A program made the position numbers and the translations under genes. DNA of 64,000 nt from a virus. Its lineage: Duplodnaviria; Caudoviricetes. Shown in pieces: positions 4,118 to 21,968 of this stretch. The DNA lies in the IMG/VR virus record IMGVR_UViG_3300042997_000909, positions 59,451-123,450 of that record, one strand, 5' to 3'. Within the stretch, counting starts at the first letter, position 1; each line of letters begins with the position of its first letter. The notes under the pieces are model-generated. The model was not told where the DNA came from. It made no database searches and saw only the letters and a program-made list of their open reading frames with translations.

Positions 4118-4137
4118 ATATTTTGAATTTATGAAAC

Positions 4138-4173
4138 AAAAAAAAATGGAGCCTCATGGTTATCCAAGCTCCA
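4138..4173 (-). terminator. intrinsic terminator
   Basis: TGGAGC/GCTCCA stem plus a 9-U tract on the minus strand. Confidence 0.6.
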
Positions 4174-4207
4174 GCCAACCTTTTTAGTAGGATTTTCTCA
4201 CATAGAA

Positions 4208-4417
4208 TTACTTCAAGCTCGCCTTGTACTTAGCCTTAGCAATCTTCAGCTCTAACTTCTCGCTTGGAGTTTTAGCAAATACACTTTTATCAATAGTCAC
4301 TCTGTGCTTATTGATTTGTATACTTAACTCCTCACGCAAGTTGTTAGCAGCGTTAGATGCATCAGACTTTGGTACAAGTTTCACATTAACTCTTGTGGCA
4401 AAGTGTAACTTCTGCAT
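4208..4417 (-). CDS. small basic protein
   Basis: Likely start MQKLHF at 4417, downstream of a TAnnTTTG box. Confidence 0.65.
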   Translation of the reverse strand: MQKLHFATRVNVKLVPKSDASNAANNLREELSIQINKHRVTIDKSVFAKTPSEKLELKIAKAKYKASLK

Positions 4418-4451
4418 TTGTTTGTATATAAAAACGTTAATAAATTTCTGA

Positions 4452-4459
4452 CAAAGGTA
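4452..4459 (-). promoter_or_regulatory. Bacteroidota sigma-A -7 box
   Basis: TACCTTTG on the minus strand matches TAnnTTTG, ~35 nt upstream of the 4417 start. Confidence 0.55.
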
Positions 4460-4490
4460 AAAAAAGGAGGAATGCATTACACACTCCTCC
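4459..4490 (-). terminator. intrinsic terminator
   Basis: GGAGGA/TCCTCC stem followed by a U tract on the minus strand. Confidence 0.7.
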
Positions 4491-4512
4491 TCGTTGCTTT
4501 AACTTCCCACGG

Positions 4513-4941
4513 TTATTGCATTGTATCTTCAGTAGACTCATGAGCGATTCTTATACAAGAAACCTCTTGAGCAAGAGCTAGTCTGTCTTCTGACAGACCA
4601 TTCTTCAGTTCTTCAAGCGTTACGTTGATCCATGTCTCTTCAATCCATTCCTGACCATCATATTCTCCAACAGAATACTCACAACCATCAGGAATATGAA
4701 CTAATACAAGTTCTGCATGATTTCCAGAGACAAACTCACTGCCTTTCTCTTCAAACAAGTCAATAAGAATTGGATCTTCTCTGTTTAAATCAATGTAGTG
4801 CTTTTCACCATCCATTTCTACAACAAGATTATAACTGTCATCAATAACAGTAAAAACTTTGTTGCTTCTTTTAAGCCATTCAAGACCTGCTTGAACAGAA
4901 GTTCCATAACCACCATAACATTTGTTCACTAATACTTTCAT
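4513..4941 (-). CDS. conserved phage protein of unknown function
   Basis: Motifs KVLVNKCYGGYG, REDPIL, IPDGCEYSVGEYDGQE match a widespread phage family (NxCYGGF...EYDGxE). Confidence 0.75.
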   Translation of the reverse strand: MKVLVNKCYGGYGTSVQAGLEWLKRSNKVFTVIDDSYNLVVEMDGEKHYIDLNREDPILIDLFEEKGSEFVSGNHAELVLVHIPDGCEYSVGEYDGQEWIEETWINVTLEELKNGLSEDRLALAQEVSCIRIAHESTEDTMQ

Positions 4942-4989
4942 ATTCTTTAAATTTACATTGTTTAAACATCAAAAAACTAATGATATGTT

Positions 4990-6080
4990 CAATGCCATAC
5001 TACTATACTTCATATGGCATTAGGAAATCACTCCTATAGGGTTCGCACGACTGGCGTATACCCTACAAACTTCATGCAGTGCACCTGTATTACTACAACG
5101 CTTTGAGCCTAAGCAACTATTTATACTCGCTCAAACGAGTTTGAAAGGCTGAGTGTTGACCTTTCATATCGTGATTCTGACAACTTTCGTCATCTTACAC
5201 ACACTTGCGGTTAAGCAAGTACACGACATACTCAACAGAATAGGTTTCTGTCTGACCACTACGTACTGGCTCATAGGTTCCTTTTCCTACCAACTTCCCT
5301 GCAAAGGATTTACAAGATGCCTCCTGTTAGTTAGATAGTAATCATTTCCCTTGTCATCTGTCTTGCGAACGTCAAACATCTGCATATTACAGCAGAATAA
5401 GAGTATTATCACCAATACGTGCTTGGACACTTTTGCTTTTCTCTTTAAGTTATAAAGTTTTAAGCGGTCCAGGAATTGTGAAAGAAGTGGCCCAAGCGCA
5501 CAGCATCATGCTACCTTTTGAGTAGTTTAGATACGACTTCTTTCTGTTTTCACCTGCCAAGGATACTCACTGTTCATTGTAATTGCCCACGGTATTTCTA
5601 CCAACAGACTACAAAAAACTAACAAACGCTTCAGAGTTGGCGACTCCTACTACAATTTGCTTACTACACTCTTCTATTGAGATTTCTCTCTCAAACTCCT
5701 GCCTGTCAGAAGTTCTGTAATACTGTGCATCAACCGTTAGGCCACAAGCACACCATACTACAGGGAATATAGTACCTTTCAGAAGACAGAGATTACTCTC
5801 TGCGCAATGTGCTACCAACACATCACTTTATACCATCACTGGTTTATCCTATGGTCACGAAGGCTGACCTGTTGTTTCAGTAACTCCACAAGGGAGCTTA
5901 ACGCATACGCCATGAGTATTTCAACTCTGAGGGCAACAACAATGTATACTTATGGTCAGGTTCTCACCCTGACCGTATCCCCCATTCTGCTATGTTTCAA
6001 GACAGACCCAGGGATTCTCACTTGTCTGTTATGGTGAGCCAACGCCAGCAACTTACTGGATAGACGCCTGGTTAAAGGAA
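4990..6080 (-). ncRNA. candidate giant structured ncRNA, GOLLD-like
   Basis: ~1.1 kb without a credible ORF in a gene-dense genome; minus-strand GNRA-capped hairpins (5591-5602, 5677-5694, 5787-5802), stem 5954-5974, long-range helices 5631-5639/5922-5930 and 5480-5488/5536-5544. Confidence 0.6.
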
Positions 6081-6098
6081 AGACGCCAATACTTTATC

Positions 6099-6467
6099 TT
6101 AATAGGTAATTTCAGGGATATACTGCTTGATATTAGCAAGTACTTCCTCAATAGTCCTATAATCCACTTTGACATAACACTGAGAGTCAATGTCAATATC
6201 TCCTTCCCATCCTACATTCTTCACACAAGAGAAATAGAAATACTGATGCTTATCAAGTACAAAGGTATACATAGTACACCTATAATCAAGTTCGCGGAAA
6301 TCTATCTTGTGCTTTTCTTTAAAAGACTCAGAAGCAAAAACATCAGGGTTAAGAGAACACAATGTACCTAATGCTATATTGTATTCATTACTACTAATAA
6401 AAGAACTACTATCTAATGTATGTTCTCTATCAAGTTCTAAGTATGCAATCATACGTGCTCTTTCCAT
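6099..6467 (-). CDS. hypothetical protein (122 aa)
   Basis: Intact ORF with A/T-rich leader. Confidence 0.7.
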   Translation of the reverse strand: MERARMIAYLELDREHTLDSSSFISSNEYNIALGTLCSLNPDVFASESFKEKHKIDFRELDYRCTMYTFVLDKHQYFYFSCVKNVGWEGDIDIDSQCYVKVDYRTIEEVLANIKQYIPEITY

Positions 6468-6506
6468 GGGTAAAAAAGTTTTGAAGGTTTGTACTGAAGG
6501 TGTGAA

Positions 6507-6522
6507 TAGCTATATAGTGTCA
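6507..6522. repeat. 16-bp motif TAGCTATATAGTGTCA, copy 1
   Basis: Exact match to 18973-18988; palindromic core CTATATAG; both copies intergenic. Confidence 0.7.
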
Positions 6523-6556
6523 CAATACTATGCGTTAATCACACAAAAACTCAAGA

Positions 6557-6600
6557 GTAAAGAAAGGTGTAGTGAGGGATTTCTCCCTCACACTCACCTC
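6557..6600 (-). terminator. intrinsic terminator
   Basis: GTGAGGGA-tttc-TCCCTCAC stem (GAAA loop on minus) followed by UUUCUUU. Confidence 0.65.
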
Positions 6601-6621
6601 CTCTAATGCAAGTGGATACTA

Positions 6622-7119
6622 TTATTCTCCACCAGGCAACATGCCTTTGCCACTGTTAAGTGTCTTAGACGCGCTAACCTCTGCCTGATTATCGTGAACC
6701 ACGTTCACATCATGCATTTGATCAGCGGTATCCCACTTAACAAAGCGTAAAATACGCTCTCCACCAGCAGTCAACGCAGGACCATCAGCACCAGCACGCT
6801 TGATATAACTATCAATTGCTTCCTCATAGGCCACGTCATCACGTAGGAACTCCTTCGCGATATCTGCAGGTACTTGAGATTCTAGGTACTCAAGTGCAAC
6901 CAATTTACCTGGTACTTGCAAACCTTTACAAGAGGTCACGAATGCCTCAAGCGTAGCGGTTTTACCACGTAAAAGACAAGTGCGCTTAACTTCGCGTACC
7001 CATCCAGCGGTCATTACAATAGCACTTTGCTCTAATTGTACATAACCAAAATCAGCGTTTGTGTCGTACGCTGTCACGATTGTGCCCTTCTTTCCAGGGA
7101 CGATTCTAACATTACTCAT
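6622..7119 (-). CDS. putative ssDNA-binding protein, paralog 1
   Basis: Clear paralog of 7961..8452 (FGY..LE, GW.R..KRTCL.RG, PG....EYLE...PAD.AK..LRDD, Y.KRAG.DG..LT.GG.RI.RF, HDN.AEV); SSB function is inferred. Confidence 0.55.
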   Translation of the reverse strand: MSNVRIVPGKKGTIVTAYDTNADFGYVQLEQSAIVMTAGWVREVKRTCLLRGKTATLEAFVTSCKGLQVPGKLVALEYLESQVPADIAKEFLRDDVAYEEAIDSYIKRAGADGPALTAGGERILRFVKWDTADQMHDVNVVHDNQAEVSASKTLNSGKGMLPGGE

Positions 7120-7142
7120 ACATCAAGAGTTTTAAATTAATA

Positions 7143-7167
7143 CTGAATTCATTGGGGGTTGTGGTGT
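7143..7167 (-). promoter_or_regulatory. 25-bp repeat copy 1, candidate phage-specific early promoter
   Basis: CTGAATTCATTGGGGGTTGTGGTGT; near-identical copies at 8536-8560 and 8785-8809; ~24 nt upstream of the 7119 start. Confidence 0.55.
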
Positions 7168-7379
7168 TGGACAAATCAGCGTGTCATACACCTTTCCTCA
7201 AGGGTGGCTTAGAACCTATCCTCACCTTGGGGAAAAAACTGCTGCGTATCGTATGCCTACCTGTGCACTCCCCTTCCCCCAAGTTGGGGACAAAAAACTG
7301 CACAACTTGACGCAATGTGTGATAGAGTGTACTCCATCCACTATGCATACTGTGTGCAGCTTGTCCCCAAGGGTTGATT

Positions 7380-7532
7380 TTATTTTGAGAGCATTGGCAT
7401 CAACATGCACGCCCAGAATACGCACATGAATCCAACAGCAGGTAGAATGTGTGTGCCCCTTGACATCAACACTCCACTAAATACACCCAGGCAGACCACT
7501 GCCCAGATGTATAACATCACTTGCTTTTTCAT
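7380..7532 (-). CDS. 50-aa two-TM membrane protein (not in ORF track)
   Basis: Read manually: MKKQVMLYIWAVVCLGVFSGVLMSRGTHILPAVGFMCVFWACMLMPMLSK*; ATGA overlap with the stop of the 7529 gene. Confidence 0.6.
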   Translation of the reverse strand: MKKQVMLYIWAVVCLGVFSGVLMSRGTHILPAVGFMCVFWACMLMPMLSK

Positions 7533-7870
7533 GCTGATAAAGAGTAATCACGTTTGCGATAGTTCTTCACTCTTGTGCAAGTGTAGGAAGACTTAACACT
7601 CTGGCGTCTATTTGCATAAGGCGCCCAAGTGATAAGCATGTACTCGCCAGGGAAATTCTTGTGGCGCTTGTTAGCAACTAAAGTCACTTGCAAGTCGCCA
7701 CATAATCCTGGCACAGTACTGGCCATCATGATTCCATATCCACAAGGAGATATTGCGAATCTGATACCTTCAACCTCTTCAACGTGAAATGTTAACACGT
7801 TATTCTTTTTCATCCAGCTGTGAAGAGGTGTTGAATCAAGCCACTGGAAATTGTAATTTGATGCTTTCAT
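7529..7870 (-). CDS. hypothetical protein
   Basis: ORF track 7529..7903; likely start MKASNY at 7870. Confidence 0.6.
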   Translation of the reverse strand: MKASNYNFQWLDSTPLHSWMKKNNVLTFHVEEVEGIRFAISPCGYGIMMASTVPGLCGDLQVTLVANKRHKNFPGEYMLITWAPYANRRQSVKSSYTCTRVKNYRKRDYSLSA

Positions 7871-7913
7871 GGGAATTGTTTTTAAAGCATTAATAAAAGT
7901 CACGCACTTAATT

Positions 7914-7950
7914 TAAAGAGAGACACGCCTGCGTGATAGACGTGCCTCTC
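7914..7950 (-). terminator. intrinsic terminator
   Basis: GAGAGGCACGTCT/AGGCGTGTCTCTC stem on the minus strand then UUU, right after the stop at 7961. Confidence 0.55.
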
Positions 7951-7960
7951 ATAGGACTGT

Positions 7961-8452
7961 TTAGAATGGTGCGTCCTCTGATTTAGCACCCTCTGCTTTG
8001 GAAGCAGCCACCTCAGCGATGTTATCGTGAGAGATGATGATGTCTTGGGTAATACCCGCTCCATCATACTCTGTGAATCTCACGATACGCTTTCCACCTT
8101 TGGTAAGGTGAACGCCATCTTGACCTGCGCGTTTCAAGTAAGGCTCAAGAGCTTCCTCAAGACTGATGTCATCGCGCAGGTTAGACTTTGCGACATCAGC
8201 AGGAATTTCATCCTCAAGATACTCGCGCACTGCTATGCGTCCTGGAAGTGTTTTGGTAGCAGCGACCAAATCTTCTAAGCGTGCAACAGTACCTCTCATA
8301 AGGCATGTGCGCTTAGAATCACGTATCCAACCCTTCTCAAAAGAGGTTGCAACGGTTTCCAGGACAATGTATCCAAACTCTTTGTTTGTTGAATACACGT
8401 TTACTAATACTCCTTTAGCATTAGCTTTGATAGTTACAGCGTTTGTTGCCAT
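7961..8452 (-). CDS. putative ssDNA-binding protein, paralog 2
   Basis: Start MATNAV at 8452 set by alignment with paralog 1; beta-rich body and acidic-aromatic C-terminus SEDAPF like SSB tails. Confidence 0.6.
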   Translation of the reverse strand: MATNAVTIKANAKGVLVNVYSTNKEFGYIVLETVATSFEKGWIRDSKRTCLMRGTVARLEDLVAATKTLPGRIAVREYLEDEIPADVAKSNLRDDISLEEALEPYLKRAGQDGVHLTKGGKRIVRFTEYDGAGITQDIIISHDNIAEVAASKAEGAKSEDAPF

Positions 8453-8535
8453 AATCGTGGGAATGGTTGACCTAAGCACCAAAAGGTTCAAATATAAAAT
8501 GTGTACTATAATTCTAAAGGCCATAGTACTGATGC

Positions 8536-8560
8536 CTGAATATCTTGGGAGTTGTGGTGT
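8536..8560 (-). promoter_or_regulatory. 25-bp repeat copy 2
   Basis: CTGAATATCTTGGGAGTTGTGGTGT, ~84 nt upstream of the 8452 start. Confidence 0.55.
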
Positions 8561-8784
8561 ACAACGTGCAAGGCAATGTGTGTTGGACAACAGGTTAATA
8601 GAAACACAGAGCATCATGTATGACACTCTGTGGTTCGTCCTGCGCAGGCACGTGGCATCCCACCACGTCTTTGAAATCACTTGCAATTATCTCTGTAGTA
8701 AGCGTATGCTTCTGACAAAGACAATGCAATGATTTGTACTCCTGCAATGTAGTATGTTTTGTACATTGTATGGATTTTGTTGTC

Positions 8785-8809
8785 CTGGATGTCATGGGGG
8801 GTGTGGTGT
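8785..8809 (-). promoter_or_regulatory. 25-bp repeat copy 3
   Basis: CTGGATGTCATGGGGGGTGTGGTGT in non-coding DNA. Confidence 0.5.
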
Positions 8810-8962
8810 AGCTGGGTGATGGCGGGGGTTGATTCAATAGACAGTACTCATATTCTCTTCCTCAGAGAGATTTCAATACTCAAAAAAATTTTATAGATTT
8901 GTGAGTGCATACCAATTTGCACCATAGAGTTTTCTATAGAAATAATTTACTCTAGAAAGATG

Positions 8963-8996
8963 AAAGGGGGGTAGTTGCTGATGCTACCTCTTTTTT
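8963..8996. terminator. possible bidirectional terminator
   Basis: AAAGGGGGGTAG...CTACCTCTTTTTT hairpin at the stop of the PRTase-like gene. Confidence 0.5.
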
Positions 8997-9489
8997 ATGA
9001 CCAGTGGTTATTAGGTTTCTCCCAATAGAATTCTAGTTCGCGGTCTGACTCTTTGTAGTATCTTCCTACTATGTCTGATTTGTATATGCTATCCATGTTT
9101 TCAAACAATGCTGCTGTGTGATATGTGATGCCTGCAACATCTAAGCATTCTGTGATCCATGTGTAGTTCTTACCAGTAATCACGCCTGCTTCTACGAGAA
9201 TCACGTTATCATAGTGCTGGAATTTGCGAATACCCATTGCGTTTGTCTGATCTAATAGCTGTCTTATATATGATACCTTATCCTCATCTGGGTATGGTAC
9301 GTCCACAAAGGTCATATCTAGCATCTCGCCATCTTTGCTCAAGTGATGAGCCACATGCATTCCAACTGTTGCACTATAATCTGGACTAACCACCACGACT
9401 AATGTCTTACTTGGGTGTGTATCCAGACTTTCTAACTTTCTACAAAGTTCTTTGAGCACTGTCCATTCTAAATCACGTGATACATACAT
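8995..9489 (-). CDS. type I phosphoribosyltransferase-like protein
   Basis: VILVEAGVITGKNY resembles the PRPP loop hhhhDDhhxTGxT; C-terminal EFYWE resembles the FPWE of Gpt-like PRTases. Confidence 0.6.
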   Translation of the reverse strand: MYVSRDLEWTVLKELCRKLESLDTHPSKTLVVVVSPDYSATVGMHVAHHLSKDGEMLDMTFVDVPYPDEDKVSYIRQLLDQTNAMGIRKFQHYDNVILVEAGVITGKNYTWITECLDVAGITYHTAALFENMDSIYKSDIVGRYYKESDRELEFYWEKPNNHWS

Positions 9490-9494
9490 AATAA

Positions 9495-9558
9495 AAGTTT
9501 TGACAAATGTAATATAAATTTGTTGAGTTTAAACTTTTGAGTATATTTGTCAAAACTT
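9495..9558. promoter_or_regulatory. divergent Bacteroidota-type promoter pair inside a 14-bp inverted repeat
   Basis: Plus strand: TTTG(9519-22)-19 nt-TATATTTG(9542-49). Minus strand: TACATTTG(9511-9504). IR AAGTTTTGACAAAT/ATTTGTCAAAACTT at the strand switch. Confidence 0.7.
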
Positions 9559-20339: not shown

Positions 20340-21968
20340 ATGGCAACACCAGTTTTAAACAACGGTCTGTTTCTGAGAGACACGAGCTACAAAGTTTCGT
20401 CTCACTTAGATTCATACCACCTAGTTAACATGCTGAAGTCTGCAGAACCAATGGATTTGGGTCCTGTTGATCTTTGGGCAATGTCTCAGAAAGTAGAAAT
20501 GCCTCTTTACCAAATGTCTTCATTTGGAGGTAAGAATACAATTTTGGTAGATACACCACGTGGCGAGTACAAGTGGCAAACTCCAATTGTGCAAGACCTT
20601 CCATATGTAACTGAGGATATTGAGCCAACAGCTGCTATTCTTGGACAAGATGGTACTACTTTCAAACTTAAGTTAAACAGACGTGTATTTGGACATGGTG
20701 ATATTATCACTTATGACAAGTATCGTGGGTTGGAATTATACATCACTGCTGATGATATTCTTCCTTCTGCAGATGGTTACATCTACACTGTTCAACTTGT
20801 GAACAACAACAACAATGCATCTTTGGATCACAAATATTTGAAACCAGGAACTAAATTCTTTAGAAAAGGTTCTGCTCGTGGAGAGTATGGAGAAAGATTC
20901 TCTGACATTGGTGAATTGACAAATGGATACCGTGAGTACTACAACTTTGTTGGTGGTGCTGAAGCTCACGTTCACTATTCAGTATCTTCTCGTGCAGAAA
21001 TGATGATGAAAGGTGGTCTTAATGCAGATGGTTCAGTTCCTGTAACTGAAATCTGGAGAACATTTGACAAAAACTTGGATCCTTCTATTGCGAACATTGA
21101 CCAAATGTTAGCAGTAATGGGTAAAGAGTATATCAAAAAAGCATATGACAATGGTTCATTGACACGTTCTTTCTTGACGAAAATGGAAGCTGCTCACTTG
21201 ACTAAGATTGCTACTGACATTGAGACTTACTTAATGTGGGGACAAGGTGGTCGCATCAAGCAAGATGGTCCAGATGATATGAGATTATCTGTTGGACTTT
21301 GGGCACAGTTAGATAACTCTTACAAGAGAATCTACAACAAATCAGGATTTACTCTTGACTTGTTCCGCTCTGAGATCTTCAACTTCTACAATGGTAAAGT
21401 TGAGTTCAAAGGACCAGACCCACAACGTAACTTGATTGTACAAACAGGTATGGCAGGTATGAAAATGATCAACCAACAAATCAAGAAAGAGGCGTTTGGT
21501 ACAGGTCTTACTGTCAACATGGATCAATCAGGTGTTGGTGCAATCTCTGGAAACAACGCAATGGATTTGAACTTTGGATTCGCATTCACAAGCTACACAA
21601 TTCCTTTCTTGGCAAATGTGAAGTTTGTATTGAACCCAGCGTTTGACAACGTACATACAAATGATATTGAAAACCCAATCATTGATGGTTATCCATTATC
21701 TTCTTACAACTTTATTATCTTTGATATCACTGATAACACAAATGACAACATCTTCTTGTTGAAATTGAAGTGGGATAGTGAGTTGAAGTGGTTCTACCAA
21801 AATGGTACTATGGACTACATGGGACGTTCACAAGGATTCCAGTCTTCTGGAAACTTCAATGGATACCGTGTCATGATGTCTCAAACAATGCCATCTATTT
21901 GGGTTAAAGATCCAACTAAAGTGTTGAAGATAGTTATGAGAAATCCAGTGACTGGAGGATCATTCTAA
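20340..21968 (+). CDS. major capsid protein
   Basis: 542 aa, position after the scaffold, strongly biased codons; EYKW, LMWG.GG, GLWAQL, VQTGMAG, NPAFD motifs of crAss-like HK97-fold MCPs. Confidence 0.85.
   Translation: MATPVLNNGLFLRDTSYKVSSHLDSYHLVNMLKSAEPMDLGPVDLWAMSQKVEMPLYQMSSFGGKNTILVDTPRGEYKWQTPIVQDLPYVTEDIEPTAAILGQDGTTFKLKLNRRVFGHGDIITYDKYRGLELYITADDILPSADGYIYTVQLVNNNNNASLDHKYLKPGTKFFRKGSARGEYGERFSDIGELTNGYREYYNFVGGAEAHVHYSVSSRAEMMMKGGLNADGSVPVTEIWRTFDKNLDPSIANIDQMLAVMGKEYIKKAYDNGSLTRSFLTKMEAAHLTKIATDIETYLMWGQGGRIKQDGPDDMRLSVGLWAQLDNSYKRIYNKSGFTLDLFRSEIFNFYNGKVEFKGPDPQRNLIVQTGMAGMKMINQQIKKEAFGTGLTVNMDQSGVGAISGNNAMDLNFGFAFTSYTIPFLANVKFVLNPAFDNVHTNDIENPIIDGYPLSSYNFIIFDITDNTNDNIFLLKLKWDSELKWFYQNGTMDYMGRSQGFQSSGNFNGYRVMMSQTMPSIWVKDPTKVLKIVMRNPVTGGSF

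Follow-up and report, generated by a model that had tools for sequence, protein, structure and literature searches.

A divergent GOLLD RNA adjoined by a pistol ribozyme in a crAss-like phage without tRNA genes

Background

GOLLD RNAs, among the largest RNAs of bacteria or phages, were reportedly described by Weinberg and colleagues in 2009, and the discovery of the pistol ribozymes is likewise credited to Weinberg and colleagues, in 2015.

The Rfam model of GOLLD (RF02032) represents only the universally conserved 3' region of the RNA, the 5' region being variable (10.1101/2024.12.08.627333; PMC12990946). The GOLLD RNAs of env-38 and S. agalactiae form RNA-only cages as seen by cryo-EM (10.1101/2024.12.08.627333; PMC12990946), and the known GOLLDs are 10-, 12- or 14-mers (PMC12990946). 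Members of the family often, and not obligatorily, lie beside tRNAs; according to one structural study, the env-38 GOLLD follows a tRNA-Met and others occur in the tRNA arrays of Mycobacterium (Morgado 2020, via 10.1101/2024.12.08.627333). ROOL (Rfam; Weinberg 2017, PMC5737381) is a second large ornate phage RNA that occurs near tRNAs and forms cages, but it is unrelated in fold and sequence to the locus described here. Pistol ribozymes cleave themselves to leave a 2',3'-cyclic phosphate and a 5'-OH (Harris et al. 2015, PMC4604425), and the processing of polycistronic transcripts has been proposed as a role for ribozymes (review PMC6765202).

In this study we describe a locus in a 64,000-nt stretch of phage DNA (hereafter the window) that joins these two families. 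It shares with GOLLD a 3' domain matching the whole model, the L14 hairpin, the pseudoknot, a phage origin, a size of about 0.8 kb and a division into two domains of which the 5' one is variable. It differs from the described members in its score (117 bits, under the 150-bit cut-off), its crAss-like host, the lack of tRNA genes not only beside it but throughout the phage, and a pistol ribozyme fused to its 3' end. No published link between GOLLD and pistol was found in the literature searched, outside the coverage of which lay the 2015 pistol discovery paper. The one paper found to name both makes no connection between them, GOLLD is not mentioned in the pistol biochemistry paper (PMC4604425), no association with giant RNAs is described in what a 2019 ribozyme review (PMC6765202) says on genetic context and large non-coding RNAs, and no ribozyme-flanked GOLLD is described in the accessible parts of the 2024-2026 GOLLD structure papers (10.1101/2024.12.08.627333, PMC12990946). 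Both families are known, and it is the ribozyme-ended, tRNA-free GOLLD architecture that is new relative to the literature searched.

Results

The window makes up the final 64 kb of a virus record of 123,450 bp that is complete and bounded by direct terminal repeats. A match to the Crassvirus capsid family was obtained for the major capsid protein (20340-21968), and a tail ring protein gives a weak crAss family match just under the cut-off; because of these matches and because the capsid is only 23-28% identical to those of the nearest GenBank phages, we regard the host as an uncultured, distant crAss-like phage. Its late region holds a run of very large plus-strand ORFs (34340-63517), of 1864, 596, 958, 1046, 1047, 1572, 895 and 1704 aa. 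Between 38 and 9489, all gene-like ORFs of at least 80 aa are on the minus strand. An earlier note on this DNA had singled out, inside this block, the longest non-coding stretch of the window, with raised GC and without tRNA neighbours. At a threshold of 80 aa the longest ORF-free stretch is indeed found there (4942-6098, 1157 nt), with ORFs of 76 aa at most, some of them of 61-76 aa, and there are no tRNA genes in the window or in the whole phage. The GC content of the stretch does exceed the window mean (0.425 against 0.36), but that of the adjacent 6100-9500 is nearly as high (0.418), so that raised GC is not unique to the RNA region.

A blastn search of the region against 50,697 GenBank phage records gave no match. 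When the whole window was scanned with Rfam at gathering thresholds, only the pistol ribozyme was returned, and a lax scan of 4400-6700 returned only GOLLD and pistol, with no second ribozyme at the 5' border; no match to ROOL was obtained in the window by the Rfam scans. A promoter scan gave 4 promoter-like sites against 6.5 expected, with nothing convincing among them, a visual search near 5990-5935 for boxes of the Bacteroidota or sigma-70 type turned up no clear site, and a terminator scan from GOLLD to the next gene found none.

All elements of the locus are on the minus strand. The last gene ahead of the RNA in the gene block is an ORF of 122 aa without family match (6099..6467), and it is followed by a spacer of about 140 nt (5961..6098; z -1.75) that cannot be aligned in two close relatives, contains hairpins, among them 5974-5954, and could include a promoter or the upstream gene's terminator. 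Next are the GOLLD 5' domain (5545..5960), in which a conserved block starts from 5953-5960 and the alignable core spans about 5945..5545, and the GOLLD 3' domain (5146..5544), which is the full match to RF02032. A 5-nt linker (5141..5145) leads to the pistol ribozyme (5079..5140). The downstream leader (4975..5078), with hairpins at 5067..5035 and 5022..4990 and without a canonical terminator, is 92-94% identical in the relatives, and beyond it lies an ORF of 142 aa (4513..4941; phrog_16527).

The GOLLD match was found by a sensitive scan of 4400-6700. At 5544..5146, on the minus strand, cmscan aligned the full length of RF02032 (model positions 1-416) with 116.9 bits and an E-value of 1.6e-31, below the gathering score of 150 bits; 11 other phage GOLLD-like matches score 70-123 bits. 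The alignment keeps the helices of the model with few non-canonical pairs. The first helix (5544-5536 with 5488-5480) is maintained by a different sequence, the conserved hairpin with the UCAAAAG (L14) loop is CUACUCAAAAGGUAG (5525-5511), and the 10-bp pseudoknot of the 3' domain is kept, both of its strands differing from the consensus. A further 3'-domain hairpin, 5217-5215/5208-5206, shows compensatory changes in one relative (L126). The earlier note had proposed either a giant phage RNA resembling GOLLD, with hairpins on the minus strand, or a new, larger RNA in a region of about 1.1 kb. The first proposal is supported by the match to the whole model, and two of the elements that the note had listed, the sequence at 5525-5511 and the long-range pairing 5480-5488/5536-5544, prove to be the L14 hairpin and the first model helix. 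The second proposal is very unlikely: the comparison supports the region as a divergent member of the known GOLLD family rather than an RNA of a new kind. The RNA measures about 0.8 kb, or about 0.87 kb with the ribozyme. The 140 nt or so at 6098..5961 are not conserved in the relatives.

The pistol ribozyme, absent from the reading in the earlier note, lies 5 nt beyond the GOLLD 3' end (5140..5079, minus strand) and matches RF02679 over model positions 1-68 with 56.5 bits against a cut-off of 34.5. The match contains P1, the P1-loop pseudoknot, P2, P3 (5 bp, with a GUAA loop), the conserved AUAAA linker and the G-U dinucleotide, the predicted cleavage site being G5084/U5083; in the pseudoknot two pairs deviate from the consensus at both of their positions, and the first pair of P2 is non-canonical. 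In its score above the cut-off, its helices, pseudoknot and linker nucleotides, its G/U site and its phage context, the element agrees with the class (RF02679; PMC4604425), but its P3 is short (5 bp), its P2 has 3-4 pairs, and it adjoins a giant structured RNA.

The 416-nt 5' domain, which lies outside the Rfam model, folds better than its shuffles (z = -4.1; 0 of 100 as good). We aligned 12 sequences (RNAalifold), including the 5' domains of nine further sub-threshold GOLLDs (70-104 bits; G133, G135, G138, G140, G164, G169, G171, G187 and G192) from a low-scoring group found in phage records of 82-412 kb and in one 8.6-kb fragment. The covariation that the earlier note had looked to homologs for is present in four hairpins of this domain, at 5869-5865/5857-5853, 5843-5840/5835-5832, 5646-5643/5637-5634 and 5601-5599/5594-5592, the second and the fourth being capped by GNRA loops (GUGA and GAAA, respectively). 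In these hairpins 16 of 18 pairs have changed on both sides, and the share of paired cells is 95.8%, compared with 62% in shuffles and 30-41% after sliding of the partners. This type of 5' domain is absent from classical GOLLDs and is common only to the low-scoring GOLLDs of large phages, and we therefore assign the locus to a distinct 5'-domain subclass.

The individual structures that had been read by eye in the 5' half fared unevenly. The hairpin ggua-GAAA-uacc (5602-5591) is present and covaries in distant homologs, and cagaga-GUAA-ucucug (5802-5787) is also present but does not vary among those relatives in which it occurs. At 5694-5677 there is a stem of 6 bp, but its loop is a GAGAAA hexaloop and not a GNRA tetraloop. 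The stem given as 8 bp at 5974-5954 exists with 7 bp, at or outside the edge of the conserved block, and its CAGG-N7-CCUG core is kept in relatives. As for the long-range complements, 5563-5569/5913-5919 is complementary but broken at two positions in L126, and 5631-5639/5922-5930 is a perfect 9-mer complement that competes with the covarying hairpin 5646-5643/5637-5634; we hold both pairings unproven.

Two close relatives, G011 (119 kb, crAss-like) and G102, came from the pistol scan described below. From 5960/5953 to 5144 they are 96.5-97.6% identical to the window, but their flanking genes are only 65-80% identical. Plotted along the window (against L012 and L103), the identity forms an island at 4131-5960, with 97% in GOLLD and 92-94% in the pistol, leader and 142-aa gene, beyond which the next gene has 80-84% and the genome background 65-77%; this pattern suggests a cassette-like exchange. 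A compensatory change is present at 5896/5884 in the near relatives. Because the 140 nt upstream cannot be aligned in the relatives, the functional RNA appears to start near 5953-5960 or slightly downstream. Both relatives carry an insert of about 275 nt (L121:1903-2177; the same in L126 and L103) exactly where the GOLLD 3' end adjoins the pistol. The insert contains no ORF reaching 40 aa, has no Rfam match (best E 0.89) and folds no better than its shuffles (z -1.57). In G102 the 142-aa gene is absent, and GOLLD, the pistol and the start of the leader are present.

To assess recurrence, IMG/VR was scanned with a strict pistol pattern, which yielded at least 117 loci, and the whole records were searched for GOLLD. 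Among the matches listed, 8 of the 117 pistol-bearing viral records contain a GOLLD, in all 8 on the same strand and within 1.5 kb of the pistol, and the GOLLD 3' domains of these loci form three groups that differ greatly in sequence. In four of the loci the pistol precedes the 3' domain by 300-361 nt, either directly after the stop of the upstream gene or within about 60 nt of it; in two it precedes the 3' domain by about 1.4 kb, and in the remaining two, which are the close relatives, it follows the 3' domain at about 280 nt. Each of five records tested has exactly one pistol. The probability of such nearness under random placement is about 1e-10, by arithmetic from the record lengths with the eight taken as independent, and it is still small if they are counted as three lineages.

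In the reverse direction, a GOLLD motif scan led to 92 records, of which 47 were chance matches and were dropped, leaving at least 45 true GOLLD records. Among the matches listed, none of these 45 pattern-found records has a pistol (positive control 5/5), so that pistol-flanked GOLLDs are a recurrent minority; the GOLLD and pistol fractions are rough, being drawn from the matches listed of pattern scans. A pattern for a GOLLD end followed by a pistol found 14 loci in IMG/VR, none with a GOLLD by an nhmmer profile, the sensitivity of which was not separately controlled.

We also scanned 25 pistol-free GOLLD loci, among the matches listed, with Rfam. In 12 of the 25 a tRNA begins 6-49 nt past the GOLLD 3' end (at 6, 8, 9, 9, 11, 12, 14, 15, 37, 40, 44 and 49 nt), and in seven the 3' domain is preceded, at a distance of 338-574 nt, by the end of a tRNA, which places that tRNA at the start of the 5' domain. 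The pistol-flanked records show the complement of this pattern: this phage, G011 and G090, all complete or nearly so, were found to have no tRNA gene, and the same holds for three fragments. Both G090 and G011 are crAss-like, whereas the phages with tRNA-flanked low-scoring GOLLDs are not. The tRNA-flanked loci resemble ours in having a small, self-folding, cleavage-directing RNA placed 5-49 nt past the 3' end or directly before the 5' domain. They differ in that a tRNA is cut by RNase P/RNase Z, whereas here the ribozyme is predicted to cut itself, and the cut would fall on the far side of the element, which would thereby stay on GOLLD. As general neighbours of tRNAs pistols did not stand up, only 4 of 123 lying within 500 nt on the same strand among the matches listed. 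In the phage and prophage records with classical GOLLD loci we also observed neighbouring tmRNA genes (L225:978-1364 and L241:3643-3940), and in L241 a tRNA lies inside GOLLD (1784-1854), an arrangement that we take to be the known GOLLD with a tRNA in its linker.

Discussion

We read the locus as a divergent GOLLD with a pistol that serves as a tRNA-independent end-maker for a cage-forming RNA, and we give this reading as a whole a probability of roughly 0.7. Since the locus is inside a minus-strand gene block and no recognisable terminator precedes the next ORF, GOLLD is probably made as part of a longer minus-strand transcript. By the chemistry of its family, the pistol would cut this transcript between G5084 and U5083, giving an upstream product that consists of GOLLD and the 62-nt ribozyme with a 2',3'-cyclic phosphate end, and a downstream product that is the mRNA of the 142-aa ORF with a 5'-OH start. 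The cut probably frees the GOLLD RNA from the downstream mRNA, in place of the tRNA/RNase P cut, and because the ribozyme occupies the usual slot of the tRNA in a tRNA-free phage, it may be read as an end-maker that is independent of the host. More generally, GOLLD would be cut out at its borders by a flanking signal, either by RNase P/RNase Z at tRNAs or by self-cleavage of a pistol. The released RNA may then assemble into an RNA-only multimeric cage, as homology with the env-38 and S. agalactiae GOLLDs suggests, and its unusual ends could stabilise the product. A more tentative proposal, to which we give slightly less than an even chance, is that in tRNA-free phages GOLLD cage RNAs rely on pistols for a maturation that needs no tRNA. 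Because two relatives carry the insert of about 275 nt, precise trimming of the GOLLD 3' end is not required and cannot be the only point of the cut. It also counts against the end-maker reading that this cut would leave a 62-nt ribozyme on GOLLD, compared with 6-49 nt after a tRNA/RNase P cut.

A different division of labour, in which the pistol serves the downstream message by uncoupling the mRNA of the 142-aa gene from the structured RNA or by giving it a 5'-OH, would make the nearness of GOLLD secondary. The cut product would consist of a conserved two-hairpin leader followed by the ORF, the relatives tolerate 275 nt between GOLLD and pistol yet keep the pistol directly before the same leader, 109 of the 117 pistols are not near a GOLLD among the matches listed, and the processing of polycistronic transcripts is among the roles put forward in PMC6765202. 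However, G102 has kept GOLLD, pistol and the start of the leader without the downstream gene, the pistol takes the position held by a tRNA at pistol-free loci, and in four members of the lineage it sits between the upstream gene and GOLLD. As the pistol of these four lies on the opposite flank of GOLLD, the common neighbour is GOLLD and no single gene, and we consider a role confined to the downstream message improbable. Still further down the scale, with very little probability left to it, is the reading of the region as a new RNA family larger than GOLLD or as small coding ORFs that tile it. The Rfam score is below the gathering cut-off, the ORFs of 61-76 aa do occur in the region, and the 5'-domain type is not found in classical GOLLDs; but the match extends across all 416 model positions at E 1.6e-31 with the helices kept, the same 5'-domain type precedes other GOLLD 3' domains, and variability of the 5' region is described as a feature of GOLLD (10.1101/2024.12.08.627333; PMC12990946). 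Moreover, the distant homologs have no ORF in common with the region, and its covariation is that of an RNA.

The pairing could also be viewed as the result of exchange, GOLLD and pistol forming a recombining cassette that has recently passed among crAss-like phages. The identity declines on both sides from 97% through 92-94% and 80-84% to 65-77%, the borders at 5953-5960 are sharp, the 275-nt module, found in some of the phages and missing in another, sits precisely at the joint, and G102 lacks the downstream gene. Recent recombination, and not constraint, could lie behind the high identity of the block, since the downstream gene, too, is 94% identical. Against this, the same island with the same borders is seen in both relatives, the few internal substitutions include compensatory pairs, as expected under selection on an RNA, and slow evolution is to be expected of a cage RNA held together by many tertiary and quaternary contacts (10.1101/2024.12.08.627333). 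We judge this explanation unlikely, less so than the two preceding ones, and it is compatible with the function that we propose for the pistol as an end-maker of GOLLD.

Together with eight other loci, the present one ties GOLLD to pistol at the border position that tRNAs hold elsewhere, and it leads to the testable idea that the neighbours of GOLLD are processing signals that cut the RNA from a longer transcript. It places GOLLD in crAss-like phages, and the comparison indicates that an entire group of divergent GOLLDs of large phages is missed at the Rfam cut-off. If the more tentative proposal on maturation by pistols is true, GOLLD function or cage assembly would require that the RNA have a defined end or be released from the mRNA next to it, and the pistol class would gain one of its first concrete biological jobs.

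The pistol scan also uncovered other arrangements. In L095:6096-8240 (G094) and in L013/L122 (G012), about 2.1 kb without an ORF of more than 69 aa comprise a pistol, a gap of about 1.45 kb and a GOLLD 3' domain (130 bits), the gap being either a very long 5' region or further RNA modules that have no listed family. On one viral contig, three same-strand pistol-pattern matches lie within 1.1 kb (L070:308-1429), forming a tandem pistol array.
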